Positions 1 to 14,631 are shown, counted from the first letter of the stretch. The stretch is DNA of 17,768 nucleotides from an uncultured archaeon (GCA_964590575.1 CAZPWM010000064.1:1-17768); one strand, 5' to 3'. The notes: generated by a model not told the origin, from the letters alone. Translations and numbers: made by a program.

Positions 1-471
1 TTACGAAAAAGACTGACCCGTGGTCGTACCATTCTCGGGATGATTGCCGCCTCGTTGTATTTAGCCTGTCGTGTTCATCAGGTTCCACGTCCTCTTGAGG
101 AGATTGTTGAACAGATACACATCACACGTAAGGAACTCAGCCTCTGTGTTCGACTTATACTTAGGTATCTTAATCTTAAGATACCCCATAGCAACCCTGT
201 GGAGTTCGTTCATCGCTTCGGCACTGAACTAGACCTTCCAGGTGAGGCGAAGAAGAAGGCCATTGATATCCTACAGTTGGCGAGAGAGCAACGACTCACC
301 ATTGGCAAAGATCCCAAAGGAATGGCGGCTGCTGCAATCTATGTTGCTAGCATTCTCACAGGTGCTAGACGGACCCAACTTGAGATTGCACGAACTGCAC
401 GTGTGACTGAGGTCACCGTGAGGAACCGCTACAAGGAAATGGTGGAGAAATTAGGTATCTCGACCACTTGA
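1..471 (+). CDS. tfb: Transcription initiation factor IIB (TFB), 5'-truncated by the window edge
   Basis: The frame is open from base 1 (LRKRLTRGRTILGMIAASLY...). Two cyclin repeats with GR(T) and GKDPKGMAAAAIY motifs and the C-terminal HTH TQLEIARTARVTEVTVRNRYKE. Confidence 0.96.
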   Translation, partial: LRKRLTRGRTILGMIAASLYLACRVHQVPRPLEEIVEQIHITRKELSLCVRLILRYLNLKIPHSNPVEFVHRFGTELDLPGEAKKKAIDILQLAREQRLTIGKDPKGMAAAAIYVASILTGARRTQLEIARTARVTEVTVRNRYKEMVEKLGISTT

Positions 472-476
472 GCTAC

Positions 477-509
477 AGAGGGGGTTTTCCCCCTCTATCT
501 TCCCTTTTT
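477..509 (+). terminator. Probable tfb terminator (hairpin plus pyrimidine/T tract)
   Basis: Perfect 8-bp stem AGAGGGGG-TTTT-CCCCCTCT (477-496), followed by ATCTTCCCTTTTT, just after the stop codon. Confidence 0.7.
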
Positions 510-566
510 CTAATTCCTAAGGTTTATTGTCCTTCAGACATATTCCATTAGTGAGGAATCAAATTC

Positions 567-764
567 ATGATTTGGTTGGTCTTTGTGGGGCTATTCGTAA
601 TTGGCCTATATTGGTTGAACTCAAGGCCAGGTGATGGAACCCATCATGACCAACGGGCACGTGCAGCACACCTCCGTTTAATAGAACAAAAAAGAATCGA
701 AGCTGAAATCGCTTTCAGGCAAGCCGACCAACAACGTCACTATAGAGGATGGCGTAGGCGATAA
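567..764 (+). CDS. Small hypothetical protein with an N-terminal membrane anchor and Arg-rich C-terminus (65 aa)
   Basis: ATG start preceded by GTGAGG (551-556) and a TTTATT element (~523-528). Hydrophobic first 17 aa, then a basic helical tail. Confidence 0.55.
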   Translation: MIWLVFVGLFVIGLYWLNSRPGDGTHHDQRARAAHLRLIEQKRIEAEIAFRQADQQRHYRGWRRR

Positions 765-868
765 ATCTCAAGTCTACAAACATATTTCGCCCGTCGTATA
801 TAGTATAAGCTCTTTCAAGAAAGTTGTTTATTTACTCAATAGTGTTGAAAGTTTCCATTGTTTTCAGA

Positions 869-3800
869 TTACTTCAAATCGTTTCTCAGTTTCAAGCCTC
901 GCTCATAATACTCTCTTCTCGTTCCCACGCCTAACTTCCACAACTCAACATCATCAGGTATGACCCCAAATGCCTTTTCTACTTCATTCCTCGAGTCTTC
1001 GGGATTGTTATTACCCATTAGTATCTCAGCCTTCAAAACTCTAGCTATAAACAGGTACCACTTTACTTCCTCATCTTCTAAATTCATAGTCACGAGATGT
1101 GAGATATTTTCATCAACTCGTTCTAGTGCCACATCAAATCGCTCTTGTCTGAGATAATACTCCACTAACTGGTTTGCATGGGAGCCCATAGCCTTGAGCT
1201 TACCCTCCTCTCGATATTCCTCAATAAACATAATCAATTCAGCCTCTTTGCGGTCGATACCATCTGCTTCCAGTTCATCGTCATCAAGAATTCCTCTCAA
1301 CATCATACGAAACTCCTCCTTGTTCTCAAGAGTATAATCAGACAATGCTCCCTCATCTAGGACATCAATAACTGAGTCTGTATCATCATCTTCACCTAGT
1401 GTGAACTCCTCTTCATAGATCACAACCTCATTCTCTTCCCAGATACTCAGAGTTATTCTCATCCCTTTTCCAGTTTGTGCAACATCAACTCGACACAGAG
1501 GCTTTTCATCTCCCCATCCATAGGCCTTGAGTTGTTCTCTAATACCATCAAGCTCCTCATCATAGTTGTAGATGTTGTCTCTTGATGCACCAATCATCTT
1601 CAACTCCCCGACCAGTTCTTCTATCATGCCCTCGAGATTTAAGGTTCCATTCAGTTTCATAGTAAATGTCTTTCCCATCCAAGACTGTTTAGTCAGTGTT
1701 GAATTTAGAGTCCAATGAATCATCCCCTTCTTGAACACACTCGATAATATCCACTCTCCCTCTGGGAGTGAGAACTCCTGGTCCTCATGTTCCTCGTCAT
1801 CATAGCTGAGAGCATGAACAAGCCGTGACTCCTCAGCTAATCCTGATGGCAGTCGCACACGTGTTAGTTGACTTACATCGATTTCAAGGGTGAAGTCTTT
1901 TCCAATACTAGCATCAACAAGTTCCTCACATTCAACAAGAAGTTCCAACTCATAGGGGTTCATCCATTCATCCTCAAGTGTCTTCAACTGCGACTTCTTT
2001 GGCAGCCCTTTGAGCTTGACCGTGATGAAGTTGAACTCACCCTTGTTTCGACGAACTTCATCTACCTCTGCCACAAGGGTGATTGTCCCTCCATCCCTTG
2101 TTTGGAGAAGCTCTGCACAAGTCTTGGGAAACAGATTCCCCAGTGAGAAGAGATCAACACGATGAACGAGAGGTGTGAAAAATGAGAGATATATGACATG
2201 CGCCTTTTCTCCACGTCGGTCGACGACAGCAGAATACTCTATGTCTTTCTTATGGTCCCAGAACAGCAGTCCACCATCATCTGTTCTTAGAGGTGTACCC
2301 TTCAAGTATGGGTGCTTCAACAAACCAATGAGCTCATACGTGTTTCTCAGCTCGTAGGAATGTCCTGAGCTGAACTCTACACGATAGCGCTCTGTTTCAA
2401 GGTTAATACTCACTTGGGTTTTCACATCCTCAATCTCTTCCGAACCTTTGAAGGCTCCAAAGAGCAACGAGTCCACATTTGCATCAACCTTGAGAATCTG
2501 CTCAGGTCTGCTTTTCTCCAGTTCCAAGAACAGACTCTCCGGAATTGGTGAGAGTTTAAGCCAACGTAACAGTCGTCCATCATCTCTGCTTGTGGCAAAC
2601 TCAAGAACCACAGGTGCAGTCCATTTGTCCTCTCCCTCAATCTCATCAATGAACCAGAGGATACAGGTTTCACCGATATTCGTAAGAGCTATCTGACTTC
2701 TCGCTGAGGATTCAGTCATAGTCCTAACAGAGGTCCTCAACGTTGATGGGTCAGTTATACATTGATTCCAGCCGAGCTTCAGTCCGTGACCTTCTAGATC
2801 TGATACAAGACCAATGAGTGGTTGGTCTGCATCTGGAAGCACAACCCATGCATTTGGTACTCCTTCCCTCTCCATCCAGATAAGCTGTCCATAAACTACA
2901 TCCTCGGTGGAAATTTGAGGTTGTATGGTATCCCTCAGACACGTTGCGCGGAACATCAGCCTCGAATAGATGAATTGGAAGTCATACTGTGATTGTGCCG
3001 TCTCTTCCGCGTGATCCATTGGCTGAAAACCCATCTGATACAGTTGCCATTCAACCATCGACTCCCATAGGGTTATGACAAGACCTTCAGAGGGTTTGAG
3101 AGAGTGTGTCTTGATGACTGTGAGAAGAGCAAGGAACAGGTTGTTCCCATAGAGTGAGATGATATCAGGACACAGCTCCTTCGCCATCTGCAGTACAGCC
3201 CTGTTGTCAGTTGTAAGGATGTCACCAAGTGTTTCTCTGGAGCCTTCAACCTCACTCCAGATTTGAGCTCTCCATGGATCACGAAGTATGATGTCCCGTA
3301 CTTCTTGAAGGGCAGTGACTAGAGTCTCTTCATCATGAGTGTCTAAGCGTACATCTACACACAGTCTGACTATATCCCGACAACATGAGTAAAGGTTACT
3401 GTTCTTGTGAAGTTGTTTCATGAGGAACTTTGCCGCACTCCTGAGTCGCCTAATCTCTCTCTTACTAGCTGATAAGGTGTTCACCTCATCCAGTCCCGTC
3501 CTTTGATACATTGGGGGCCTTCGAGAAACCCCCACCTCATACTCTTGGTCATTAGAATCAATGGGTATCTTGTCATAATACCATCCTCTCTTGATCTTTG
3601 AGAACTCAATATATTGTTTCTTTGACCTGGGAGGTCGTGGAGGAGGTCTATCGGGAACAAAGTTCATCCTATCAGTGAGCAAGGGAGAGTCATTGGATGT
3701 GACAGCTAGCGAGACGCTCTGCCATTTTTCTTCCGTGGTTTGTTCTTCATGCGTGGATGACATCTCACGCCTTAGAAGACTCGGAACGAGAGTCATTCCA

Positions 3801-6517
3801 ATGTTCTGTAATTGGTTCACAGTCTCCGATGTGAGAGATGTAAGTGATGAGTGAACTTTCTTGAGTGTCACAGAACGACCGTACATTGGCTCGCCCTCGA
3901 AGTCACCCCCATAGACCTCTGCTCCAGGAACTACTCCTTCTCTTCTGGAGAGCCCTCTGTATTTTCGCGCCCACCCCTTCAAGTGTGGTACCCTTATGGG
4001 TTGTATCCATGGAGGTGCTTTTGTTGGAGTGTCTTGAATGATTAGTCTTGTGTCCTCGTTTCTTGGAGTTCGCCAGCCAAAGACCCGAGGAGCAATTGGG
4101 ACATTGTAGATGATCTCATCAATGTGAAACCGTCTGGGGGAGTCGTGACGAAGAGGTCGTACACAAGCTCTCTGATAGTGCTTGTTCATCCTAGTGTGAG
4201 AGACTCCATTGTCGATCCAAATCACATTCACGTTTTGAGAGGGCAGAGTGTCCAGAAGTCGGTCCTCCAAATTTCTTAGAATGTTCATTTTTCTTGGTGA
4301 GGTCATTTCTTTCAGTTGTGCCCACCCATCAACTATGATGATCCTCTCAGAGTCGGTTGTTTCCTTGCTATGAAGTGGCTCTAAGACACTTACGAGTTCA
4401 ACGTCTGTACCAGAGAGAACCGAGTCAATAGTAGCTCGCAAGTTGAGGAAGGTGACATTATCCAAGAGTGCTGTCAGTGTCTTGTGCATCCCTCTCGTAA
4501 TCTGTCTCTTTTTCAGCAAGATGTCAAGACCGAATCTTCTCTTCATGAGATGGTCAGTGGGATAGTCTCCCAAAAAATCTAGCCAATAGACCTGTAGCTT
4601 CTTGTTCGATGGTTGAGAGACCTCCTCGATATGATTCAATAAGTGCCAGTTCCGAGAAACCCATGCTGCAGCATTCCCGAAAGAAGTAGATGAGGGAATC
4701 GAAACATAGTGGGTCAATATTCGATCATCTGACACTCTCTCCTTGAATGGGTCCTCAACGGAGAGTGACAAAACAGGAGATTGCTCCTTGAAGAGTTCAT
4801 CCAAGTTCTCGCCCTCAAGGAGCAGAAGTGCAACTCGTAGAGTGGCACCCTCCTCATCCTTTGAGTCGAAGGTGAGTGTTCTGGATTCGTTCTTACTAAG
4901 CTCGCCAGTGAGAATCCCATTGGTCAGTTCATCCAGAAGAGTGTGGAATGCATCAAAGACCTCTGAGTAATCTTGGTCAGTGTCAAGTACAATGACTCCT
5001 TTCCAGAGGTTCTTTGGAATAGTGACACCAGCAGGGTTTATTCTCTTACTCTCTTCGAGCAATGCTTTCTCATAAGCCTCGAGCTGTGTCAGGACCCGAT
5101 CATCCGGGTCTGATTCTATCGTTCTTCCCCACTCGTCTTCTGATAAAACCCGTTTCCATGCATAGAGTGCTGGGGGCATTTCTTTTTTCTTTCCGGTGTG
5201 GATGGCATAGAGATTGAAGTCAAAAGAGGTCTTCGACTTGACCTCAATGATCATCACTGGTGTCCACAACACAAGCCCCTTGATGTTCCGTCTGATGAAA
5301 AACGTAAGATCTATCCTCCCCTTCTCTCCAAGCCCTGTAACTGGAAGCTCACCAACAATCAGAATTGATGAAGGTTGGTCAAGCATCTTATCTCCTGCAA
5401 AGATGACTGACCTTAACGACTTGGGGTGGTGAAGGTCTGAGAGTAGAATTCTGTGCCAGTCGTTTCCCTCTTTCTGAGAGAGTGCGAGGACTTGGTCAAA
5501 GAGCTTTTCAACATCCCTATCGACAATTCTTCCTTGGTCGATATGGTCTAGTATCTCGGAGTATCTCTCTCTTGTCTTTGCATCATGAGTTTCAGCGATC
5601 AGCTCGCTTACTTTGGCCCATAGGATGTCTACAGTGGGTTCTGGGATGTCTATATCCAGCTCTCTTGTGATGGATTGCCTCTTTCCCACATGGCTGCTAT
5701 ATAGACTACGAATCTCTAGAACTAGCGTTCTCAGCTCTTTGTCAGCATCAGGCTCGAAGTAGTTTCTACCACTCTTTCCCTCAGAATAGACATAGTCCAA
5801 GAACGGAGTGAGTCGATGGATCAACAACCTGATGTATCTATGAGCATCAGAACGTGGAACATTGTGGATGAAACACTGACGGACCAGCTCCACGCTATGG
5901 GCACGAATCATATCAACAAAGTCAAGTCCTGGGAGAGTGGGATGAGTTAGCAACACTGTCGGGAATTTTCTATTTCCTTTGTATCCTGCTTTCCAGTGCG
6001 TTTCATTGGCATCATCATGGGCATACTTGGATACATGCTTCTTCTGGATTGTTGCCTTCGTTCCATCTGAATATTTCCTTATCTGGAATTTCTCTGGCTC
6101 TGGAAAGGGGTATCTCGTCGTAGCAAGGTCTCTCAAACGTGCTCCAAGATAGTTGAGTAAAGCATTTAGTGGTCCAACTGTGCCTTCCTCCCAGCTATAT
6201 ACTCGTTTGAACTCATTGTTTCCAAAACGTCGTGTGCTGTGCCAGAGGATCTTGAGAAAGAATCTTCTCAGGTTTGCCTCTGCGTTCTTAATTGGTGTGA
6301 AATCAAGTCGCGATTTTCCCACGCTTTCTCTTCTTCTCTTTTGTTCTGCTCTAGCCTCGCTCCAGTGTGTCAGAATACTCTCTAGGTACTTGCAAGTCTT
6401 CTTGTCAACCCGTTTCCTTGCAAGTCTGACCAAAGCAGTTAGCCCAGTGTAGATTGATGCTGTTAGGATGGCATTGGGGTTCATCTCTCTAGGCTTGCGG
6501 CCCATTGCAATCAGCAT
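869..6517 (-). CDS. Giant (1882 aa) multidomain protein: basic N-terminal region, RecB/Cas4-type PD-(D/E)XK nuclease, degenerate RecA/KaiC-like P-loop fold, acidic TPR-like C-terminus
   Basis: Uninterrupted 5.6-kb ORF. Motifs E390...GRID403...IIE425VK427S...Q478LEAY482. RecA-like order of elements YVSIPSSTSFGN (no GKT), VYWLD, IIIVD730GW, VIWID. The true start may be ATG 6505 (MGRKPR), given the TATA box at 6534-6541. Confidence 0.85.
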   Translation of the reverse strand: MLIAMGRKPREMNPNAILTASIYTGLTALVRLARKRVDKKTCKYLESILTHWSEARAEQKRRRESVGKSRLDFTPIKNAEANLRRFFLKILWHSTRRFGNNEFKRVYSWEEGTVGPLNALLNYLGARLRDLATTRYPFPEPEKFQIRKYSDGTKATIQKKHVSKYAHDDANETHWKAGYKGNRKFPTVLLTHPTLPGLDFVDMIRAHSVELVRQCFIHNVPRSDAHRYIRLLIHRLTPFLDYVYSEGKSGRNYFEPDADKELRTLVLEIRSLYSSHVGKRQSITRELDIDIPEPTVDILWAKVSELIAETHDAKTRERYSEILDHIDQGRIVDRDVEKLFDQVLALSQKEGNDWHRILLSDLHHPKSLRSVIFAGDKMLDQPSSILIVGELPVTGLGEKGRIDLTFFIRRNIKGLVLWTPVMIIEVKSKTSFDFNLYAIHTGKKKEMPPALYAWKRVLSEDEWGRTIESDPDDRVLTQLEAYEKALLEESKRINPAGVTIPKNLWKGVIVLDTDQDYSEVFDAFHTLLDELTNGILTGELSKNESRTLTFDSKDEEGATLRVALLLLEGENLDELFKEQSPVLSLSVEDPFKERVSDDRILTHYVSIPSSTSFGNAAAWVSRNWHLLNHIEEVSQPSNKKLQVYWLDFLGDYPTDHLMKRRFGLDILLKKRQITRGMHKTLTALLDNVTFLNLRATIDSVLSGTDVELVSVLEPLHSKETTDSERIIIVDGWAQLKEMTSPRKMNILRNLEDRLLDTLPSQNVNVIWIDNGVSHTRMNKHYQRACVRPLRHDSPRRFHIDEIIYNVPIAPRVFGWRTPRNEDTRLIIQDTPTKAPPWIQPIRVPHLKGWARKYRGLSRREGVVPGAEVYGGDFEGEPMYGRSVTLKKVHSSLTSLTSETVNQLQNIGMTLVPSLLRREMSSTHEEQTTEEKWQSVSLAVTSNDSPLLTDRMNFVPDRPPPRPPRSKKQYIEFSKIKRGWYYDKIPIDSNDQEYEVGVSRRPPMYQRTGLDEVNTLSASKREIRRLRSAAKFLMKQLHKNSNLYSCCRDIVRLCVDVRLDTHDEETLVTALQEVRDIILRDPWRAQIWSEVEGSRETLGDILTTDNRAVLQMAKELCPDIISLYGNNLFLALLTVIKTHSLKPSEGLVITLWESMVEWQLYQMGFQPMDHAEETAQSQYDFQFIYSRLMFRATCLRDTIQPQISTEDVVYGQLIWMEREGVPNAWVVLPDADQPLIGLVSDLEGHGLKLGWNQCITDPSTLRTSVRTMTESSARSQIALTNIGETCILWFIDEIEGEDKWTAPVVLEFATSRDDGRLLRWLKLSPIPESLFLELEKSRPEQILKVDANVDSLLFGAFKGSEEIEDVKTQVSINLETERYRVEFSSGHSYELRNTYELIGLLKHPYLKGTPLRTDDGGLLFWDHKKDIEYSAVVDRRGEKAHVIYLSFFTPLVHRVDLFSLGNLFPKTCAELLQTRDGGTITLVAEVDEVRRNKGEFNFITVKLKGLPKKSQLKTLEDEWMNPYELELLVECEELVDASIGKDFTLEIDVSQLTRVRLPSGLAEESRLVHALSYDDEEHEDQEFSLPEGEWILSSVFKKGMIHWTLNSTLTKQSWMGKTFTMKLNGTLNLEGMIEELVGELKMIGASRDNIYNYDEELDGIREQLKAYGWGDEKPLCRVDVAQTGKGMRITLSIWEENEVVIYEEEFTLGEDDDTDSVIDVLDEGALSDYTLENKEEFRMMLRGILDDDELEADGIDRKEAELIMFIEEYREEGKLKAMGSHANQLVEYYLRQERFDVALERVDENISHLVTMNLEDEEVKWYLFIARVLKAEILMGNNNPEDSRNEVEKAFGVIPDDVELWKLGVGTRREYYERGLKLRNDLK

Positions 6518-6533
6518 ACTTTCTTAATATTAA

Positions 6534-6541
6534 TTTATAAA
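6534..6541 (-). promoter_or_regulatory. TATA box of the giant gene
   Basis: TTTATAAA about 30 bp upstream of ATG 6505, the usual spacing for a short-leader archaeal transcript. Confidence 0.55.
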
Positions 6542-6542
6542 G

Positions 6543-6589
6543 AATACGTTTCTAATGGTGAATTGAATAAGGCATATTAGAACCCTATT
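6543..6589. repeat. Imperfect inverted repeat (12/14) in the divergent promoter region, possible operator
   Basis: AATACGTTTCTAAT (6543-6556) and ATTAGAACCCTATT (6576-6589), 19-bp spacer. Confidence 0.5.
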
Positions 6590-6630
6590 TTTAAAATAAA
6601 ATGCTCATAATCCTTTATTATAAGAACGGC

Positions 6631-6645
6631 CTAATAAGTTTATAA
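6631..6645 (+). promoter_or_regulatory. BRE/TATA promoter for the tnpB leader transcript
   Basis: CTAATAAG-TTTATAA, predicting a start site near 6665-6670. Confidence 0.55.
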
Positions 6646-6741
6646 CCTCCGAAATAATAGAAAAGGTAGGAGTTCAAAACCTTCCTGATTGATATGAAAG
6701 GGAGTGAACTCGAAAGAGACAGGTCAGAAGTTTATAACCTC
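6636..6741 (+). repeat. Exact 14-bp direct repeat AAGTTTATAACCTC (6636-6649 and 6728-6741)
   Basis: Read directly from the sequence; 78 bp lie between the copies. Confidence 0.95.
6665..6741 (+). ncRNA. Putative crRNA-like guide unit in the tnpB leader (repeat-like 6702-6727, guide from 6728)
   Basis: 6702-6720 is complementary to 8462-8479. The segment ends in AGGTCAG, resembling archaeal IS200/IS605-type right ends, and is followed immediately by the 14-nt promoter match. Function is inferred. Confidence 0.45.
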
Positions 6742-6752
6742 AGGTGAAACAG

Positions 6753-8504
6753 ATGGGTCGCTCCAAAGGCACAATAATCAGCGTGAAAGTCCCAATACGA
6801 AGGGACTCTATGACTGATAGACAGAAGACTCGACTCTCGCAGATAACTGGAAGGGATACGCGAGTCATCAGGGCGTATCTTGGAGTGATTGAACGTCATG
6901 AAGATGAGTTGTTGACAGGTCACAAAAGAACGAGAATTGATGCTTCGAAACTGGATGAACTCACCCTGACTGCATCCAAAGGTAAGGCAAATAGAAATCA
7001 GGTCCCTCACGATTTCAAGGTTCGATTTCCAAATATATCCGCGAATGAGTTTCAGGAGTGTCGAGACACTGCCATTGCTATGTGGCAGAGTTATCTTGAG
7101 CTGGGCGGTTCCAAACCTTTCCGGATAAAGGGACACTCCACTCGAAAGATTCCACGATTTGCATTTACTCAACGTTTTGAGCTTGTATATAGTCCTGAGC
7201 TCGTAATTCGACACTGGTTGAAACTCAGGGACTCACTTGATTCAGTCAGTGAAGGGCGAGTACGACATGACAAGCTCATGATTCCCCTCTCTATCTCTTC
7301 TTTTCATCTAAATCGGTTGCAAGAGGGAGAGGTTAAGACAGTCCGTATCAACAAGGACTCCAGTCGTAAGTGGTGGGCTATCTTCACGGTGACTCTTTCT
7401 GTTGATAGAATCGATACTGTTGGCAAACCCCCTGCTGTACTGTCCATTGACCTTGGGATAAACAAGGCGGTTTGTTCAGTCCTGCTCACAAGAAAGGGCC
7501 ACAAACAGATTCGCTACTGGAAACAGGAGGACAAGCTTCAGCGGATGAAGGTACTGGATGAGAGGGTTGCGTCACTCCAGCGAGAAAAGGAACATCTCAT
7601 CGCAAAGGGTGGGAATCCCGACAGAGTAACTTTCCAGCTCAGGCGTCTACGTGGAAAACGAGAACGTGTTAGTACGGAATATGACAGGAAGCTTGTGCGA
7701 GATATTTCCGATCACATCATAGAGATGACCGATGTCTATGACCTTTATGTTTCAATAGGTAGGGTGAAAGGAATCAGAAATGCTGCCAGAAAGGGTAATT
7801 GTAGAGGGAGAAGATTCAGAGGGATGATCCATCGCTGGGCTTTTGCAAGGATTCGCGACATGTTGGAACACAGACTCACTTCCCTTGGGTTTGATCCCAA
7901 GAAGTACAACACAGTCCCGGAGCAATGGACCTCTATCATGTGTCACAAGTGTGGACACAAGGGAATACGCCCAAAACAGAACCTCTTCATCTGTACCACC
8001 TGTGGACTGAAGACAAACGCCGACCTGAATGGCGCTTCCAATATTGGGAAGCGCTTTATTATGCTCATCCCTTCACTGAGAGATGAGAACGGACTAGGGA
8101 TGTGGCTCACTCCCAGAGATAGAGCTATACTGAAAGCCCGGAGGAAGACTCGTGCTTCTGATGGGAAGTCCGCACTCCCCCAGGGAACACCAGACCCGAA
8201 GGGGGAGTCCGTGGCCGACTCCTATGACCAGACTTCAATAGTGGAGTTTGCGAGGTGTGAAGACCCTGTCATGGTAAGTGCTGTGGAAACACCGTCTGCT
8301 ATCGCACCAGCTGGTGAGTGTGAGGGAATGCAGCGGACAGAAACCGGGTCCCATCAGAGGAACGATGTTCCAGTGAAGAGGGGCAAAGCTCACGACACTC
8401 TGAAAGATTCCGATCTTTTGGAAGTTGGTGACAGCAGTCGTGAGAAGGGTGGAACGCAGAAGTCTCTTATAGTTCACTCACACTATAAGAAATGGGTTCT
8501 ATAG
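6753..8504 (+). CDS. tnpB: TnpB/Cas12f-like RNA-guided endonuclease with a rearranged (Fanzor-type) RuvC active site and a long C-terminal tail
   Basis: Numbered from the 586-aa ORF: RuvC-I SID236LG, RuvC-II position VSIG339RVKGIR, relocated E393 (VPEQWTSIMC), zinc finger C400/C403/C417/C420, RuvC-III NAD427LNGASNI. ATG 6753 is preferred because AGGTGA (6742-6747) is a canonical archaeal RBS. Confidence 0.92.
   Translation: MGRSKGTIISVKVPIRRDSMTDRQKTRLSQITGRDTRVIRAYLGVIERHEDELLTGHKRTRIDASKLDELTLTASKGKANRNQVPHDFKVRFPNISANEFQECRDTAIAMWQSYLELGGSKPFRIKGHSTRKIPRFAFTQRFELVYSPELVIRHWLKLRDSLDSVSEGRVRHDKLMIPLSISSFHLNRLQEGEVKTVRINKDSSRKWWAIFTVTLSVDRIDTVGKPPAVLSIDLGINKAVCSVLLTRKGHKQIRYWKQEDKLQRMKVLDERVASLQREKEHLIAKGGNPDRVTFQLRRLRGKRERVSTEYDRKLVRDISDHIIEMTDVYDLYVSIGRVKGIRNAARKGNCRGRRFRGMIHRWAFARIRDMLEHRLTSLGFDPKKYNTVPEQWTSIMCHKCGHKGIRPKQNLFICTTCGLKTNADLNGASNIGKRFIMLIPSLRDENGLGMWLTPRDRAILKARRKTRASDGKSALPQGTPDPKGESVADSYDQTSIVEFARCEDPVMVSAVETPSAIAPAGECEGMQRTETGSHQRNDVPVKRGKAHDTLKDSDLLEVGDSSREKGGTQKSLIVHSHYKKWVL
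8155..8500 (+). ncRNA. Putative omega/reRNA (tracr-like) scaffold overlapping the tnpB 3' end
   Basis: Nested stems: 8157-8166/8349-8358 (10 bp), 8168-8173/8333-8338, 8174-8181/8201-8208, 8222-8228/8268-8274, 8229-8250 hairpin, 8359-8371, 8389-8396/8437-8444, 8403-8418, 8465-8473/8482-8490. TnpB RNAs are known to overlap the gene 3' end. Confidence 0.75.
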
Positions 8505-8547
8505 GCTTATCATAGTAGAATCAACATTAGAGGCAGTGAGAGATACG

Positions 8548-9384
8548 ATGTCCACAAAGGTGTCCATACTGGGTGTCTGGCTTATCGAGCGAGGCAGCGG
8601 TAGGAATCTTGTGTCTAGGGCGTACTCTGACGCAGTCAAGCTAGATATGGATTTGATTGCACCATTCCTCTCTGCTACTCACACCTTCATCGATAAAGCT
8701 TCAAATGAAACTCTCAAGACTGTAGACACTGAAACCAACAGATATGTCTGGGAAGCCAACGACCATCTCCTCTTTGTCATGGTCGTTTCCAAAGCGGCAC
8801 GGCTTGGACACATGCGTTTCATTCTCGAATATGCTCTCAATGAATTCATGAACAAAGAGGTTCCTTCTGACTCTGATATTGATACTCTTTTGAAGAACTG
8901 GCATGGAGCTCCTAACACATTCACAAAATTTGGTAAGTTTGTGGATGAGCTAGTAACTCAGTATGAGGCGACTGATGAGAGTCTTGTGGCTGGGAAGTCG
9001 ATGGATTGTCTTGAGGTCTATAGCCATCTTTTCAGAGGAATTATGCGCGTAAAAGGCGGAAAGCAGAAAAAGGAAGCAATTGTCAAACGAATGAAAGGAC
9101 TCACTGAACCACTTATTGATAGATATCCCTATCTTTCTCAGGTTCCAATAGATGCAGCTGGTATCGAGGTTCTTGACATTGACATAGGCAATGTTGCATA
9201 CCAGCATCTTAGAGATTCATTAGAGGAGCTACTGCGACTTCTTGGTAAAGTCGTTCGTGAGGTAGTAACCCCAAAGGCATACCGCGATATGTTGTTCGAT
9301 CATGTAATGCCATATGTGAAACATGATATACAGAGGCTTCAGACATATGCGATTCTTGACGACGTTATTAGATATCTATTCTAA
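8548..9384 (+). CDS. Longin-like domain protein (Asgard eukaryotic-signature type) with a helical C-terminal domain
   Basis: N-terminal pattern ILGVWLIERGSGRNLVSRAY...LIAPFLSATHTF...LKTVDT...RYVW...LLFVMVVS...ILEYALNEF fits the longin beta-beta-alpha-beta-beta-beta-alpha fold. Alternative start GTG 8536. Confidence 0.65.
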   Translation: MSTKVSILGVWLIERGSGRNLVSRAYSDAVKLDMDLIAPFLSATHTFIDKASNETLKTVDTETNRYVWEANDHLLFVMVVSKAARLGHMRFILEYALNEFMNKEVPSDSDIDTLLKNWHGAPNTFTKFGKFVDELVTQYEATDESLVAGKSMDCLEVYSHLFRGIMRVKGGKQKKEAIVKRMKGLTEPLIDRYPYLSQVPIDAAGIEVLDIDIGNVAYQHLRDSLEELLRLLGKVVREVVTPKAYRDMLFDHVMPYVKHDIQRLQTYAILDDVIRYLF

Positions 9385-10725
9385 TTACTTTTCGAGGACA
9401 ATCAGAGATCTTTGAACTACTTGCCCTCTTTTTCTCTCAGGTATCAATTCTCGATCTGGTCTGATTCTAAGACGCGGATGAATATCCCTCTTGTTCAATA
9501 TAGACCTCCCCGGCAACATCCTATACAGTGCCAATCCCGTACCTCTTGTTAAATCTTTGAATTTAATCGATATTGCTTCTCCCTCGGTGTTAATCACAGG
9601 AATTGTCATGGCGACACGACCATCAGGTCTAAGTATGCTCGCAATCTCTGTAAGCACTTGTTGATAGAGGGTAGTAAGCTCTTTGATTGTCTTATCTGCT
9701 TCAGATCGTGAAGGTTTTTTCTTGAATATTGGTCCCAAGATTGGTTCAAAGGCAACAGCATCAACTTGCTTTTTAATAAGTGATGATAACTCTCTTGAGT
9801 CCCCTTTGAAAACATCATAATCGAGTTTCATGCCCAAATCATTTGCAAGCCATTTTAGGTTTGATCTGGTGCCTTGAACCTGATCTCCATCTATGTCCAC
9901 ACCAATGCACTTCATCCCTAAGATGGCTGCTTCCATGAGAAGAGTTCCAGTACCACAGAAAGGATCAAGTATAGTATCCCCCGGTCTTGCTCCGGCGAGG
10001 TTGAGCAACGTTCTACAAATCTTCGGGCTCGTACTAATTTCGGCTGAAACAAAAGGTCTTGACTCATCTCTATATTGCTGTAACATAGAGTCGTAGACAA
10101 TCCGCGTCCTCGCAATGTACAGCTTCCTTTCAGAGAATATTGCTAGAACTTCTGCATTGGGTGTAGCTAACAACGCATTTTGAGCAATGGTCTTGGGCCA
10201 GAGTGCAATATTCAATCGTTCCTCCACTCGTCTATCTGGCTCGTCATAGGCGAAATAATCTGCCCGTTTGGCACCATTTTCTAGTAGGAGTTTCTTAACT
10301 TGGTCGTCCATGCCTCGAGTGAATCTTCTGAAATTAACTGGAGAGCTGCCATCGAAAACTGGATATGTACTGATACCAAACTTGATTTTTTTCCCGTTTG
10401 CTCTTGGCCACACAATCTTAAGCCAAGGACACTTTCGGATTTCTTCAAGAGCCTCTTTGTTTGCAACGCCTTTTGTTGGAAAAGATTTCATTGGTAGGTC
10501 AATGTCGTACTCCCAGATGACTTTGCCAATTTTATAGCAGCCTCCCAGAGCTGATTGCATATCCACAATCTGATCACTATCAAGGCGTTGTTTGATATCG
10601 ACAATTGCAGCATTTCTTGAATGGTCCACAAGGGTTCCATCAAAACCTCGGTCCTGTACGTATGCTAAGAGTTCAGCTATACTGAGTAACCAGTTCGAAC
10701 CGAGCACAAATGCAAGTTTTGTCAT
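9385..10725 (-). CDS. trm11: Trm11/TrmG10-family tRNA guanine-N2 methyltransferase
   Basis: SPKICRTLLNLA, SAM motif ILDPFCGTGTLLMEA, IGVDID, and an N-terminal THUMP-like region. Confidence 0.8.
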   Translation of the reverse strand: MTKLAFVLGSNWLLSIAELLAYVQDRGFDGTLVDHSRNAAIVDIKQRLDSDQIVDMQSALGGCYKIGKVIWEYDIDLPMKSFPTKGVANKEALEEIRKCPWLKIVWPRANGKKIKFGISTYPVFDGSSPVNFRRFTRGMDDQVKKLLLENGAKRADYFAYDEPDRRVEERLNIALWPKTIAQNALLATPNAEVLAIFSERKLYIARTRIVYDSMLQQYRDESRPFVSAEISTSPKICRTLLNLAGARPGDTILDPFCGTGTLLMEAAILGMKCIGVDIDGDQVQGTRSNLKWLANDLGMKLDYDVFKGDSRELSSLIKKQVDAVAFEPILGPIFKKKPSRSEADKTIKELTTLYQQVLTEIASILRPDGRVAMTIPVINTEGEAISIKFKDLTRGTGLALYRMLPGRSILNKRDIHPRLRIRPDRELIPERKRGQVVQRSLIVLEK

Positions 10726-11597
10726 TTACTTTCTTTCTCCAACTCTTCGAAGAGGAACTTGACGTAGAGTGCCCCCTGAAGCGGGTTTGTAGATTCACTT
10801 ATGAACGTAGGCTTGTATCCACATTCACGAACGATTTCTACAAGAGGTAGAATATCTGGGCCCCATTCTTGACCTAGAGGTCGATGGGCGGCTTCTCCTT
10901 TTTCAGTAAATGTAATTCCACTGACATGGAAATGCATGTTATTAACAAATAATTCACCCAACTCATTCTCGAAACGAGTCAATATTTCAAGATATTTCTG
11001 TTTATCATTCACCTCTCCGTGGCTTCTTGCATAGAGATGAGCCCAATCAATGGTTGGTATGCAATCCTCTACATCCTGACACAACTTAATGATTTGATCT
11101 ACAGAACCATATGCGGACAACTTCCCTGCGATCTCGGGAGCCAAAAATACGCCTTTCCTATTGTTTGGAGCTTTTTCCCAGACGCTTCTTAATGCATCTC
11201 TGATGACTGCATGAGCTGCGTCCTTGCTCAATCCCCCTAGATATCCCGGATGAAACACGATGCGTTTCACATTCATCAATGGGGCGAACCTGAGTGCCTT
11301 GACCAACCTATCTTTTGATGATTCTCGTATTCGTGGGGTCTTTGATGCAAGGCTTATGTAATACGCCGCATGTAGACTCATCGTGATTCCTGTTTCTTTT
11401 GCCAGCTCACCAATTTCATGCGCCTTATCCTCTTTGGTCCTCAATCCATGTACAGCTGCATATTCTAGAGCGTTGACTCCCACCTTCGTTAGAATCTGAA
11501 AAACACGTTTCACATTTCCACGTGCCTCGCTTGGATACCCCGCTGGACCAAAGAGAACTTTACTCAGGACTATCGCTCCTCTAACTTGAATTCCCAT
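10722..11597 (-). CDS. nfo: Endonuclease IV / AP-endonuclease family 2 TIM barrel (archaeal type)
   Basis: FGPAG, SLHAAYYISL, IVFHPG, APEIAGK, TIDWAHLYAR, HFHVSGI, ISES. The start is either ATG 11597 (overlapping the upstream gene) or CTG 11567 after AGGAG. Confidence 0.88.
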   Translation of the reverse strand: MGIQVRGAIVLSKVLFGPAGYPSEARGNVKRVFQILTKVGVNALEYAAVHGLRTKEDKAHEIGELAKETGITMSLHAAYYISLASKTPRIRESSKDRLVKALRFAPLMNVKRIVFHPGYLGGLSKDAAHAVIRDALRSVWEKAPNNRKGVFLAPEIAGKLSAYGSVDQIIKLCQDVEDCIPTIDWAHLYARSHGEVNDKQKYLEILTRFENELGELFVNNMHFHVSGITFTEKGEAAHRPLGQEWGPDILPLVEIVRECGYKPTFISESTNPLQGALYVKFLFEELEKESK

Positions 11598-12082
11598 CTA
11601 CAATATGCGTCTTCAGGGTGTTCTCCTGGTGGACAGAAAATACATCGGGTCTGGATACGAGGATCGATGGTTTCTGCAAAGTATCTGTATTCAATCTCTC
11701 CGACCTGTCTACAAGGAAAGTCTGGTAAGCTCTTCCTGTTGCGTGCCACTTGAACACGGCACTCGTTCATTGTGAAGTGCAAAGTATTATCATCCACCCA
11801 CTTGAAAGATTGTTTATTCAATCGTGCATATACGCGATATCCAAGAGCTTGTTCAAGTGATTTAAGGCCGCCATTTGATGGAATATCGAATTCCTTCATG
11901 ATCCGACGTGCTTCTATGGGTGAGAAAATCTTCCATGCTTCCTTGTCCATCTCAATGGCCACATCAATACCATACTTTTTCTCCAGAGCGAGAAAGTATG
12001 CTCCATCCATAGCCTGCCAAGCTTTAGCATATGTATCAATTATCTTCAATAGTTGTTCTCTTGGTAGATCATCAATCATCAC
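11570..12082 (-). CDS. DUF6125-like (V4R-related) Cys-containing protein
   Basis: WQAMDGAYFLALEKKYG, CRVQVAR...FPC, CIFCPP, CRWEF. GGAGG RBS lies just upstream of GTG 12082 / ATG 12079. Confidence 0.7.
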   Translation of the reverse strand: MMIDDLPREQLLKIIDTYAKAWQAMDGAYFLALEKKYGIDVAIEMDKEAWKIFSPIEARRIMKEFDIPSNGGLKSLEQALGYRVYARLNKQSFKWVDDNTLHFTMNECRVQVARNRKSLPDFPCRQVGEIEYRYFAETIDPRIQTRCIFCPPGEHPEDAYCRWEFKLEER

Positions 12083-12193
12083 TCTTCCTCCATAAATCTC
12101 ACAAGAATGACCCAATAAGAGTGATTAGGTCAAACGACTGTTGTCCACAAGTCTTTAATTCAAGATGTTTCTCGAGAGCTTGGTTGGACGGAG

Positions 12194-13135
12194 ATGACTG
12201 AAACCTCGTCTGAAATAAATAATCCTACGCGTTTCCACCCAAAGGCTTTCCTATCAATAATCCGACCGCAGAACTGTGTCATTGGTGGTCTAACTGTTAT
12301 TGCAGGTGTAGCCATGGCCTATCGTATGGCTCAAGTTGGCAGCGGTATCTCTGATTTCCTGCCTCTTTTCATCTACGGCTACGTCACGTACTTCTTCGTA
12401 GCTGCTGGTGGTAATGTTGTAAATGATATTTTTGATGTTGAGGTTGACAAGATTAATCGTCCACATCGTGCTCTACCCAGTGGAAGAATGACAATAAAAC
12501 AAGCATGGGGATATGTGGCATTTCTAAGCATTGTCGGTCTTCTGTTTGCCATTCTTACTGGTCCCTATAGTGCATTGATTGTGTTATGTTTCCAAATCAT
12601 TGGCTACGCTTACGCAGCGAAGGTGAAGACACTTGGGCTTGCAGGTAATTTCATGGTGGCATTCTCATTTGCTTTTGGTGTTCTCTATGGTGCATTTGCC
12701 TATGGCGAAACCATTGGATTACCACTGACAAATGCTATTCCATTACCCCATTGGCTCTTCTTTTTCACAGCCTTCCTTATTCTCCAAGCCCGTGAAACCA
12801 TCAAGGGTGCTGAAGATGTTGAGGGTGATGAAGCTAGAGATGTACGCACCATTGCTAGAATCTACGGTTACAATGTAGCTGCCGCGGTAGCTGCAGCACT
12901 CAACTTCATCGGAGTCCTAAGCTATGTGCTAATTTGGATCTGGGGTTTTGCAAGCTGGAATTTGTGGCCATTGCTCCTGTTGGGTTCAGGTATAGTCACA
13001 GGAGCTGGAATTGCTCCACTCACCAGACCAGACAATAAACGAGCTCTTCTGATTGGAAGTACCCTGGACAAAATTGGTGCACTAGTAGGTTTGATTGCCT
13101 TTGTTATAATTCCATTATATGGACTCCTGATCTAA
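12194..13135 (+). CDS. Digeranylgeranylglyceryl phosphate synthase (UbiA prenyltransferase)
   Basis: IIRPQN, GNVVNDIFDVEVDKINRPHRALPSG, RETIKGAEDVEGD and multiple TM helices. Confidence 0.9.
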   Translation: MTETSSEINNPTRFHPKAFLSIIRPQNCVIGGLTVIAGVAMAYRMAQVGSGISDFLPLFIYGYVTYFFVAAGGNVVNDIFDVEVDKINRPHRALPSGRMTIKQAWGYVAFLSIVGLLFAILTGPYSALIVLCFQIIGYAYAAKVKTLGLAGNFMVAFSFAFGVLYGAFAYGETIGLPLTNAIPLPHWLFFFTAFLILQARETIKGAEDVEGDEARDVRTIARIYGYNVAAAVAAALNFIGVLSYVLIWIWGFASWNLWPLLLLGSGIVTGAGIAPLTRPDNKRALLIGSTLDKIGALVGLIAFVIIPLYGLLI

Positions 13136-13968
13136 TGTACTTGCCAAAACGTCCATACTAGTACAATCACGCAAGCCACAGCAACTAATGCAGCCCATAA
13201 TGTTGAAGTATCGTGTGCCTCCCTGATTCCAAAGATTAACAGATAACCCGTCCACAAGAACGCACCTGTCGTCATGATATCTATTGCAAACCAAATTCCA
13301 GAAGTATATGCCCAGCTTATCACTGCTGGAGTAATCAACGCTAGCGCACCACTATCGGAGAAGTCGACTATGTCTGGATATGCTGGCAATCCTATGAGAA
13401 CCACAAGTATCGCAACCAATCGCACGAGGATGACTGGCATCATGCTATAACCCACTACCGAGAGCGTCTTCATCCTACTTCCTGTACCGCCAGTTATTTT
13501 GAAGGCGAAATGTGCAAACATTGTCCCAACCACGAGATAGATGAGACCTATCATGATATTTGGCATTATTCCCACAAGCGCAACTATCCAGACTATACCT
13601 CCTTGAGGACTGGTCAACAAATTGGTCTGACCAATCTCGAAAGTTGTTGCATTCACAATGACATTAGTAGTGATTTTTGATGACATTGATAGAAACAAAC
13701 CCGCAAAAATCAAAGCATTGATCAGAATTATCATAAATGGACCTGCGGCGTCGGGTCTTTGTCCAATATCTCGATATGTTGCTGATGGCTTTCTGATCAC
13801 TCCCCACATTCTTTCACGAGTTCCCATGTACTTTACTTCAGGGGATTCAGGTCTCTTTAGGATAGGTAAAATTCGTTCTAGAGTTTCTTCTGCAATAGTT
13901 TCCTTGCAGACTGGACAAGTGGTTGCGTCAGCCGGAACAGGGCTGTCACAGAATTCACAGCGCCGCAC
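13132..13968 (-). CDS. Yip1-domain membrane protein with an N-terminal zinc ribbon
   Basis: CEFC...CPVC at the N-terminus, GVIRKPSATY, five TM helices with LSVVGYSMMP and GIREAH. Confidence 0.8.
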   Translation of the reverse strand: MRRCEFCDSPVPADATTCPVCKETIAEETLERILPILKRPESPEVKYMGTRERMWGVIRKPSATYRDIGQRPDAAGPFMIILINALIFAGLFLSMSSKITTNVIVNATTFEIGQTNLLTSPQGGIVWIVALVGIMPNIMIGLIYLVVGTMFAHFAFKITGGTGSRMKTLSVVGYSMMPVILVRLVAILVVLIGLPAYPDIVDFSDSGALALITPAVISWAYTSGIWFAIDIMTTGAFLWTGYLLIFGIREAHDTSTLWAALVAVACVIVLVWTFWQVH

Positions 13969-14049
13969 GATTCATCATCTCATGGGGAGTGGCGTATAGG
14001 ATAGAATGTCGTGTCTGTCTATTTAAGCGAATTCCGGTTGGGTTCTTAT

Positions 14050-14631
14050 TCACCACATGCCAAAACTCTTGAAAACACCCGTCCTATGCACAATTATGAA
14101 CGGAATCAATGCGTCCCACAAACTCTGGAATGCATTCAAGATAAGTGCATAACCCAAGATGAATTCCACGGTGAGGAAGGGCAATGCAAGGGCTCCATAT
14201 ATGAGATTCACAGGAACCATTATAGAAATTCGTAGAATGAAGGCTGATATCATCAATGTAGCATAGAACCTAGGTCTTGAGAGGGACTCCCCCTCCTTCC
14301 CACTTCCTAATCTGCGCACACCAAACCATGGGACAACAATCATTGGTAAAGTAGCCAATATTTTGAATATAGGTCCAATGGCAGTCGGATCGTACATGAA
14401 TAGACCAAAAGTGCCTGCAAACGCACTCAGAATTCCCACCCAGTATCCACCTAACAGGAATGCAATCACCCAGAAGATTGAAACCGGATCAAAGAGTGCA
14501 ATTCCCCATCCAGGAATCCTTGGAACAACTGATGCAATCGGGGCAACTGCAATTGAGAGTGCAGCCAACACGCTTGCTGTTACGATCTTTTTCACTCTAT
14601 CCGCGCTCTCGGAAGCCAATGAGAGGTCCAT
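14050..14631 (-). CDS. ECF transporter S component, RibU-like
   Basis: KKIVTASVLAALS, FDPVSIFWVIAFLLGG..G, about 6 TM helices. ATG 14631 is preferred to the ORF-track start at 14727. Confidence 0.7.
   Translation of the reverse strand: MDLSLASESADRVKKIVTASVLAALSIAVAPIASVVPRIPGWGIALFDPVSIFWVIAFLLGGYWVGILSAFAGTFGLFMYDPTAIGPIFKILATLPMIVVPWFGVRRLGSGKEGESLSRPRFYATLMISAFILRISIMVPVNLIYGALALPFLTVEFILGYALILNAFQSLWDALIPFIIVHRTGVFKSFGMW

Follow-up and report, generated by a model that had tools for sequence, protein, structure and literature searches.

A two-gene Thorarchaeota insertion pairs TnpB with a giant protein of predicted Cas1-like fold and belongs to the published aCas1-TnpB class

Introduction

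The adaptation machinery of clustered regularly interspaced short palindromic repeats (CRISPR) and the Cas12 effectors are presumed to descend from Cas1 integrases and TnpB nucleases, respectively. The closest described loci combine Cas1 and TnpB. Section 9 of Altae-Tran et al. (2023, PNAS, PMC10691335) reports TnpBs associated with "Asgard Cas1s" (aCas1) in two Asgard groups, Cas1H-Asgard-1 and -2, and takes aCas1 from Makarova et al. (2020, CRISPR J). In that section, aCas1 is proposed as the transposase of the Asgard aCas1-TnpB loci, the loci are said to be flanked by repeats, and a hypervariable stretch followed by a conserved GTTCACTCA is described downstream of tnpB. Here we analyzed a stretch of 17,768 nucleotides from an uncultured archaeon (GCA_964590575.1 CAZPWM010000064.1:1-17768), hereafter called the window; its own genome is labelled G000 and the window is contig C64. 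The window carries a TnpB-family gene transcribed divergently from a gene for a giant protein. We show that the two genes were gained together as a single insertion, that their pairing recurs far beyond chance, and that the element belongs to the published aCas1-TnpB class.

Results

The giant gene and the TnpB gene form one insertion

The two genes, the spacer between them and the boundaries of the insertion are arranged as follows.

869-6517, minus strand: giant gene, an open reading frame (ORF) of 1882 amino acids, encoding an aCas1-type multidomain protein that is a candidate integrase/transposase
6744-8504, plus strand: TnpB-family gene, an ORF of 586 amino acids, with a likely ATG start at 6753
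6518-6743: divergent intergenic region of 226 bp, with TATA-like boxes beside each start
799-803: left TATAG copy (target-site duplication, 5 bp exact, against the empty site G022:C212)
804-868: left end, reaching from the junction to the giant stop codon, not conserved between copies
8500-8504: right TATAG copy, where host sequence resumes in at least 20 related genomes

The insert spans 804-8499, that is 7696 bp (~7.7 kb), and is bordered by TATAG on both sides; the TnpB stop codon falls inside the right repeat. The ATG at 6753 was taken as the likely TnpB start because the paralogues begin MGRSKG. An exact empty site was found on G022:C212, which reads ...GTCGTATATAG followed directly by GCTTATCAT..., so that window position 803 is joined directly to 8500. 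When the whole window was searched as DNA against 28 genomes of the genus, many of them joined positions 1-~510 straight to 8500 onward, including G009:C234, G042:C103, G006:C87, G005:C13 and G016:C201. The stretch ~510-803 (568-765), which lies between tfb and the insertion, is present in G022 and missing at most other empty sites; thus, the left flank is itself variable within the genus. Because the empty sites in related genomes lack both genes, the giant gene and the TnpB gene are a single insertion and were gained together.

A second full copy, on contig C2, shows 74.7% identity over window positions 883-8501, and its homology ends at both gene ends. Other full copies, with the same end points, match window positions 862-8503 (G012:C270) and 867-7072 (G042:C22). 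A clean empty site was not found for the C2 copy, whose locus is a variable hotspot with nested content. This hotspot occupies ~4000-14540 of locus L023 (G000:C2:52000-71999), and the content between its flanks differs in other genomes. Beside the C2 copy lies an ORF of 324 amino acids (C2 57220-58194) with 94% DNA identity to a gene that adjoins a giant-TnpB element in G001:C17.

A divergent TnpB gene accompanies the giant gene across genomes

A divergent TnpB gene was present at 23 of the 23 giant homologues with an upstream flank, at a separation of 120-320 bp. These pairs comprise 6 from the own genome, 13 from the same genus, 2 from other genera of the family and 2 from another Asgard family (f14). 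In G000, all six paralogues whose 5' side is on the contig have a TnpB partner (C64, C2, C141, C6, C69 and C123), and three more giant fragments at contig ends were not judgeable. The partners belong to two TnpB types, one of ~580 amino acids (C64, C2, C141) and one of ~700-720 amino acids (C6, C69, C123).

A protein search with the giant in 40 related genomes gave matches in 17 of the 24 other genomes of the genus, with as many as 17 matching segments in a single genome, and in none of the 16 outside it. Among the fetched genus loci, 13 of the 13 that contain the giant 5' end and its upstream flank have the divergent TnpB gene; three loci cut at the 5' end and one odd locus stand outside this count. 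We then built a profile from 16 giants and ran it over 301 genomes of the phylum. Within the family it matched 51 of 76 genomes; family f14 gave matches in 3 of 11 and f5 in 1 of 28. A divergent TnpB gene was found at two loci from other genera and at two loci of f14. The third f14 locus (L131, G301:C137) holds a broken giant gene and was not judgeable for a TnpB neighbor: the giant homologue (giant region 940-5979) is interrupted into two ORFs, with one in-frame TGA. It is followed at 6213-7355 by a protein of 380 amino acids with a MazE-antitoxin-like domain (E 6.8e-5).

Among 5.8 billion proteins, 104 relatives of the giant were found, all unnamed or "hypothetical", and every relative that bears an organism label is from Candidatus Thorarchaeota. 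The viral contigs searched contained no giant relative. The giant family is multi-copy and patchy in Thorarchaeota, and is not a host gene.

The distances between giants and those between their TnpB partners are correlated (Mantel, Pearson r 0.54; 0 of 2000 permutations reached that value). Exchange of partners was also observed, in that loci L035 and L107 hold C64-like giants with the long TnpB, and the C141 and L042 giants are found with the short TnpB. The pairing outlasts this exchange, which argues for function and not for common descent alone. These results show that the giant-TnpB pairing is far beyond chance.

The giant protein is predicted to join a Cas1-like domain to a nuclease and a RecA-like domain

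The giant protein matched no Pfam or NCBIfam family, and its domain pieces searched against Pfam at E up to 10 gave only a weak HSDR_N match in the nuclease region (E 0.17). Structural models were compared with known folds. The AlphaFold (AF2) model of residues 1-620 was built on 82 sequences, with a predicted local distance difference test score (pLDDT) of 83.4, and was aligned with VIA-align to 48,161 representative PDB chains. A second model covers residues 575-1700 (pLDDT 81.9). The domains assigned are listed below.

5738-6502, minus strand, residues 6-260: predicted Cas1-like alpha-helical catalytic domain (AF2, VIA-align and Foldseek)
4805-5689, minus strand, residues 277-571: predicted PD-(D/E)xK nuclease of Cas4/RecB/MGME1 type (VIA-align Z 6.8-8.1)
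3812-4732, minus strand, residues 596-902: predicted RecA/RadA/KaiC-like P-loop fold (Foldseek to RAD51 paralogues, E 1.8e-5; VIA-align Z ~11)
872-3811, minus strand, residues 903-1882 (~980 residues): a low-pLDDT linker, predicted to be disordered, followed by segments modelled as helical and beta-rich and by a TPR-like tail; no fold was assigned by the searches

For residues 6-260, the best 12 of the 48,161 chains were all Cas1 or casposase, with Z of 9.1-12.6, root-mean-square deviation of 3.5-4.2 Å and 149-195 residues aligned. Foldseek with the model of residues 1-620 likewise gave a Cas1, 4n06_B, as the best match (E 0.03), and its Cas1 entries had probabilities of 0.84-0.92 with E of at least 0.03. 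The alignment extends only over the C-terminal domain of Cas1, for example residues 94-273 of 3nke. Across 82 sequences with identities as low as 25%, this region conserves E80, N118, N122, H192, D199, D202 and R205 at a level of at least 90%. The H-x6-D-x2-D spacing of the giant, matched by eye, resembles that of H208/D218/D221 in E. coli Cas1.

Residues 277-571 matched the structures of DinG-N, MGME1, Cas4, RecB and AddA, and Foldseek returned matches of the same kind (E at least 0.03). The nuclease residues D403, E425 and K427, together with the RecB-type Q478/Y482, are invariant or nearly so. No invariant Cys was found in the alignments of the giant family, and the nuclease domain would thus be RecB-like rather than Cas4 proper. 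In the RecA-like domain, the Walker A motif is degenerate (G614-N615): its loop, SSTSFGNAA, has N615 at the Lys position and is conserved across the family. A Walker-B-like D730-G731 is present, and the domain is probably not an ATPase. Fold searches with the C-terminus yielded two lists that were both filled by the RecA-like domain, and the ESM Atlas search with residues 1010-1882 reached a best score of 0.81 (Mrr_cat, NucS_C and TPR clusters), which ranks as no more than a lead. As judged from the models, the N-terminus of the giant is a very diverged Cas1-type domain fused to a Cas4/RecB-like nuclease.

The initial annotation of the window had described a head-to-head pair with a spacer of ~240 bp, and the adjoining divergent genes agree with it, the spacer being 226 bp. 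It had also called the giant a nuclease/pseudo-ATPase, as is consistent with the PD-(D/E)xK residues D403/E425/K427 and the degenerate P-loop at G614-N615. Its statement that Y1, serine and DDE transposases are lacking was confirmed in the 17 window ORFs scanned with Pfam/NCBIfam, none of which matched these families. Its further claim of "no cas genes" does not stand beside the predicted Cas1 fold and Cas4/RecB-like nuclease of the giant N-terminus, and "no transposase" was wrong in substance, the Cas1-fold giant being the obvious integrase candidate.

TnpB and a putative omegaRNA at the right end of the element

The 586-amino-acid protein matched Pfam Cas12f1-like_TNB above the cut-off (E 1.2e-12) and scored 97.9 bits with NCBIfam guided_TnpB, just under the 100-bit cut-off. 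RuvC-I D236, RuvC-III D427 and the zinc finger C400/C403/C417/C420 are invariant in both TnpB types. The RuvC-II Glu is replaced by G339 in the short type, which has a conserved E393 instead; the long type keeps the canonical FFEDL. Such a rearranged RuvC-II is described and predicted to be active in section 8 of PMC10691335. We infer that the TnpB of the window is an active nuclease.

The 3' part of the TnpB gene contains two further features.

8087-8499, plus strand: putative omegaRNA-like structured scaffold and right end of the element (RNAalifold, 14 copies)
8472-8480, plus strand: GTTCACTCA motif, in the loop of a predicted terminal hairpin with arms TCTTATAG and CTATAAGA

RNAalifold on the 14 copies predicted 122 pairs, and compensatory double changes occur at 39 of these. 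Over the final ~410 nt of the short-type ORF (8087-8499), conservation is higher at the DNA level than at the protein level, and the last ~140 TnpB codons overlap the RNA scaffold. This segment is a structured, covarying, putative omegaRNA with a predicted guide position. No Rfam family matched window positions 400-9000 at E up to 1. All 5 copies of this TnpB clade in G000 carry the exact GTTCACTCA motif, as do all 8 of the more distant short-type 3' ends, and the element ends 19 nt past the motif. In three genes of the ~700-amino-acid type, the motif was not found up to 400 nt before or up to 300 nt after the stop codon. The stretch that precedes it, of ~9-14 nt, varies between distant copies, shows 2-3 base differences among close copies and forms a hairpin arm by pairing with the sequence that follows the motif. 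At locus L115 (G004:C94), a single TnpB gene is followed by two GTTCACTCA right-end motifs, at ~1929 and ~2044, with a spacing of 115 nt; the second looks like a further, incomplete right end or the remnant of a nested one.

The divergent region at 6518-6743 is the presumed promoter region of both genes. It contains a 14-nt exact direct repeat, AAGTTTATAACCTC, at 6636-6649 and 6728-6741; each copy includes a TATA-like TTTATAA, and the second copy lies just 5' of the likely TnpB start. An inverted near-copy of the right-end motif (GGAGTGAAC) was also observed in the spacer, at 6701-6709.

Insertion junctions and derivatives

Junctions were compared by local blastn, with G000 serving as the empty site for insertions in other genomes and relatives serving for the insertions in G000. 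The following junction pairs were obtained.

G012:C270, full element: empty reference G000:C116, reading TATATGCTTC; repeat TATATCCTTC, 10 bp
C2, full element: no empty reference; repeat AACTCTAGGT, 10 bp
G015:C121, short derivative: empty reference G000:C71; repeat AGGAGGCCAC, 10 bp
C6, long-type element: empty references G022:C9, G042:C28 and G009:C86; repeat TTCATAATC, 9 bp (10 with one mismatch)
Window copy: empty reference G022:C212; repeat TATAG, 5 bp exact (a 10-bp reading matches at 7 of 10)
C111, solo TnpB, a precise 1.9-kb insertion: empty references G020, G016 and G022; repeat of at most 3 bp
G015:C8, short derivative: empty reference G000:C6; repeat TG only (2 bp)

As shown, flanking direct repeats of 5, 9 or 10 bp are present at five of the seven junction pairs. 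G015:C205 against G000:C52 was also tried as an empty-site pair and was rejected because the junction is not clean. The right end is conserved across copies and reads ...GTTCACTCACAATTGTAAGATATGGGTT(C/T). The left tips differ, being TATAAGCTC in the window, TGTCTAAC in C2 and GGAAAGGAT in G012, and the giant stop codon lies 65 nt, 17 nt and ~300 nt from the left junction, respectively.

Solo copies of this TnpB without the giant gene were found on C111, C11 and C8, and their homology to the window begins at ~6634-6702, inside the divergent spacer. Elements of ~0.5-0.8 kb keep only the right end (8087-8498/8499, 83-89% identity) and have in addition a 5' part that they share among themselves. 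These short elements (L065-L073) were found in G015 (at least 6), G008, G012, G023 and G024, with none in G000, and one of them has a clean 10-bp duplication (G015:C121). Both the solo TnpB copies and the short elements resemble non-autonomous derivatives in which the right end has been retained.

Surroundings of the insertion

The left neighbor of the insertion is tfb (TFIIB repeat, Pfam, E 1.5e-34). The genes to its right, which include those for a methyltransferase, an AP-endonuclease-fold protein, DUF6125, UbiA, Yip1 and others, are host genes and are syntenic in most genomes of the genus. Directly right of the insertion, a protein of 282 amino acids (8536-9384, plus strand), also syntenic in most genomes of the genus, weakly matches the first longin domain of FUZ/MON1/HPS1 (E 0.0074, below the cut-off) and may be an Asgard eukaryote-like trafficking protein. 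The gene at 13132-13968 (minus strand) encodes a Yip1-domain membrane protein (E 1.9e-23), which belongs to another eukaryote-like trafficking family.

Discussion

We consider it likely that positions 804-8499 are one copy of a two-gene Thorarchaeota transposon, with the giant protein as integrase and TnpB-omegaRNA as an accessory nuclease. The giant would catalyze integration: its Cas1-type domain would join the 3' ends of the element to the target by staggered attacks about one helical turn apart, producing 9-10-bp duplications, and the fused RecB/Cas4-like nuclease would process the ends. The dead RecA-like domain and the large C-terminus may serve as a scaffold or DNA binder. The repeat-like hairpin at the right end, with GTTCACTCA in its loop, is the probable site recognized by the integrase. 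TnpB would be transcribed divergently from the giant, and the omegaRNA would be encoded in and just past the tnpB 3' end. Together they most likely act as an accessory RNA-guided nuclease that helps the element to persist or to home, as in IS200/IS605/IS607.

Several observations weigh against this reading. Sequence methods gave no proof of Cas1 homology. The profile of 16 giants had no match among PDB sequences at E up to 10, and Pfam Cas_Cas1 (PF01867) did not match residues 61-260 at E up to 10, the whole protein or the whole genome. A comparison by hhalign with 16 canonical Asgard Cas1s was weak (E 0.035, probability 1.5%) and only weakly pairs E80 with the Glu of the Cas1 "iEG" motif and N118 (GPLNALLNY) with "NalL". 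The N-terminal beta domain of Cas1 is absent from the model, in which the match starts at residue 6. Because helical domains can reach Z ~13 by chance in the fold search, the Cas1 call rests on the uniform list of the top 12 chains and on the conserved motifs. No Cas2 was seen in the element, where no search was aimed at it. As for the DNA, duplication length is uneven, at 2-10 bp (5 in the window, at most 3 at C111, and 2 at G015:C8). No sequence is conserved at the left end, which is thus undefined, and the 25 longest of 69 repeat pairs included no pair of terminal inverted repeats. The bases 5' of four duplications (GTA, GAA, AAC and AAT/GGG) share no consensus resembling a target-adjacent motif, which leaves a homing role of TnpB without sequence support.

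Part of this evidence would also suit a giant that is cargo or an effector, with movement brought about by TnpB breaks and host repair or by an enzyme elsewhere, and with repeats that are microhomologies or the fill-in of staggered TnpB cuts. Only the end on the TnpB side is conserved, the left ends being arbitrary; repeat length ranges over 2-10 bp; solo TnpB and omegaRNA-only units also insert precisely; and the Walker A motif of the RecA-like domain is dead. However, repeats of 5, 9 or 10 bp at five of seven junction pairs suit an integrase with a fixed stagger, and derivatives without the giant are expected under mobilization in trans. The near-invariance of the Cas1 catalytic residues, through 82 sequences down to 25% identity, argues that the giant is an active enzyme, and TnpB alone is not known to insert DNA. 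We therefore regard a cargo role as unlikely. We give clearly less credence to a proto-CRISPR or defence module on a mobile element, in which the Cas1-Cas4 part would acquire short DNA next to GTTCACTCA and reprogram the omegaRNA, or the pair would act as a nuclease-based defence. Cas1 and Cas4-like domains are indeed the CRISPR adaptation pair, and the stretch preceding GTTCACTCA does vary between distant copies. Nevertheless, that stretch is only ~9-14 nt long, forms a hairpin arm and differs by 2-3 bases among close copies; there is no array, and transposon behavior is seen in the empty sites, the duplications, the multiple copies within genomes and the non-autonomous derivatives.

The pairing itself might also arise by chance or insertion preference, if an ordinary TnpB-only insertion sequence repeatedly landed on the 5' side of a giant host gene to which it is unrelated. 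The same TnpB does occur as solo copies in other contexts (C111, C11 and C8), and TnpB types have been swapped between giant clades (L035, L107 and C141). However, the boundaries of the insert enclose both genes, the same divergent layout is found in all 23 cases with two TnpB types and in two Asgard families, and the giant gene is itself multi-copy and patchy. Since the empty sites are without both genes, we treat insertion preference as excluded, with a chance close to nil.

On the transposon reading that we prefer, the initial annotation was right that the two genes are one unit, as they are always adjacent and divergent, were inserted together and have correlated divergence. It had noted that giants mostly without an adjacent TnpB would speak against such a unit, and the 23 of 23 homologues with a divergent TnpB point the other way. 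It had likewise counted against the unit a TnpB that is a recent multi-copy insertion in random contexts; the solo copies on C111, C11 and C8 go part of the way toward this, and they look like non-autonomous derivatives of the same element. Among the roles it offered, selfish-element maintenance fits best, and nothing shows TnpB guiding or controlling the giant as an effector. Its proposal of a candidate new system falls because the association of aCas1 with TnpB, together with the GTTCACTCA motif, had previously been reported in section 9 of PMC10691335.

The aCas1-TnpB class is in print, and the window offers a clear example of it, with a complete copy, a precise empty site, predicted catalytic residues that are intact in both proteins, and a defined right end with an RNA scaffold. 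Asgard archaea are the archaeal lineage closest to eukaryotes, and an element in them that combines a Cas1-type protein with TnpB is relevant to how the two halves of CRISPR were joined. The element may also use a new integrase chemistry, with a ~10-bp stagger and only one sequence-defined end. As a long shot, the element could be a living intermediate between TnpB transposons and type V CRISPR, whose Cas1-Cas4 fusion integrates at the GTTCACTCA hairpin and there writes or exchanges the guide-proximal omegaRNA segment. If true, adaptation and RNA-guided cleavage would have been coupled in one mobile unit before any CRISPR array.

Two candidate relatives were rejected. Aloposons, as described in the part of PMC8813620 consulted, have tandem genes of 3000-6000 amino acids, tRNA targets and a MinD/ParA gene, and TnpB is unmentioned there. 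Large Cas1 ORFs in G069 and G086, from another Asgard family, resemble neither the giant nor TnpB by BLASTP, and no neighboring TnpB was seen. These ORFs of 1323-1363 amino acids (L096-L098; G069:C5, G069:C4 and G086:C9) match Pfam Cas1 near the C-terminal part (E 2.9e-10 to 1e-6), and by sequence they look like a different aCas1 type or a large Cas1-containing protein.

Compared with described mobile elements, the insertion resembles casposons in being a self-contained element with target-site duplications whose predicted integrase is of the Cas1 family, and the casposase 6opm_A is among the best structural matches to residues 6-260 (Z 10.8). Casposons differ in having a family B DNA polymerase and terminal inverted repeats, neither of which was found in this two-gene element. 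Here, moreover, the Cas1 part is without the N-terminal beta domain, is fused to nuclease and RecA-like domains (~1900 amino acids) and goes together with TnpB. Casposon target duplications are 14-15 bp, in contrast to 9-10 bp here. With IS200/IS605 and IS607, the element shares the placement of its putative omegaRNA, which overlaps the tnpB 3' end and runs to the right end, the TnpB-only and RNA-only derivatives, and a TnpB that probably serves element maintenance. It differs from them in that no Y1 or serine TnpA is present in the element or the window, and the genes are divergent, the second encoding 1882 amino acids. IS200/IS605 elements are not known to make target duplications, whereas the insertions here carry duplications of 5-10 bp.

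The Cas1-Cas4 pair of CRISPR adaptation (the type I-C Cas4-Cas1-Cas2 of 8d3l/8d3p and the fused Cas4/Cas1 of 7mi4) is also alike, in that both folds would be in one protein, and Cas1 and Cas4 chains of adaptation complexes are among the structural matches to the giant. The giant differs in its order, Cas1 then nuclease, in having no invariant cysteines for an Fe-S cluster and no CRISPR array, and in a sequence too diverged for Pfam models.

The aCas1-TnpB loci are the closest. Searches of the literature on aCas1 and on Cas1 with TnpB and Thorarchaeota found no other relevant paper. As far as the text of section 9 describes them, those loci and this one are both Asgard and have TnpB beside a very diverged Cas1 homologue. 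Two TnpB groups are described, and here we observed a ~580-amino-acid type with rearranged RuvC-II and a ~700-amino-acid type with canonical RuvC-II. The exact GTTCACTCA follows a short variable stretch at the tnpB 3' end in both. The published loci are flanked by repeats whose kind is unspecified in that text, and here five of the seven junction pairs have direct repeats of 5, 9 or 10 bp. No difference is demonstrable, the giants of 1500-1900 amino acids being assigned to aCas1 by description. Because every published point fits the locus, the window element belongs to the aCas1-TnpB class and is not a new system. The section 9 text does not mention exact empty sites, duplications of 9-10 bp, derivatives reduced to the omegaRNA or the predicted Cas1/Cas4-like/RecA-like architecture, which may be detail that this locus adds to the class.

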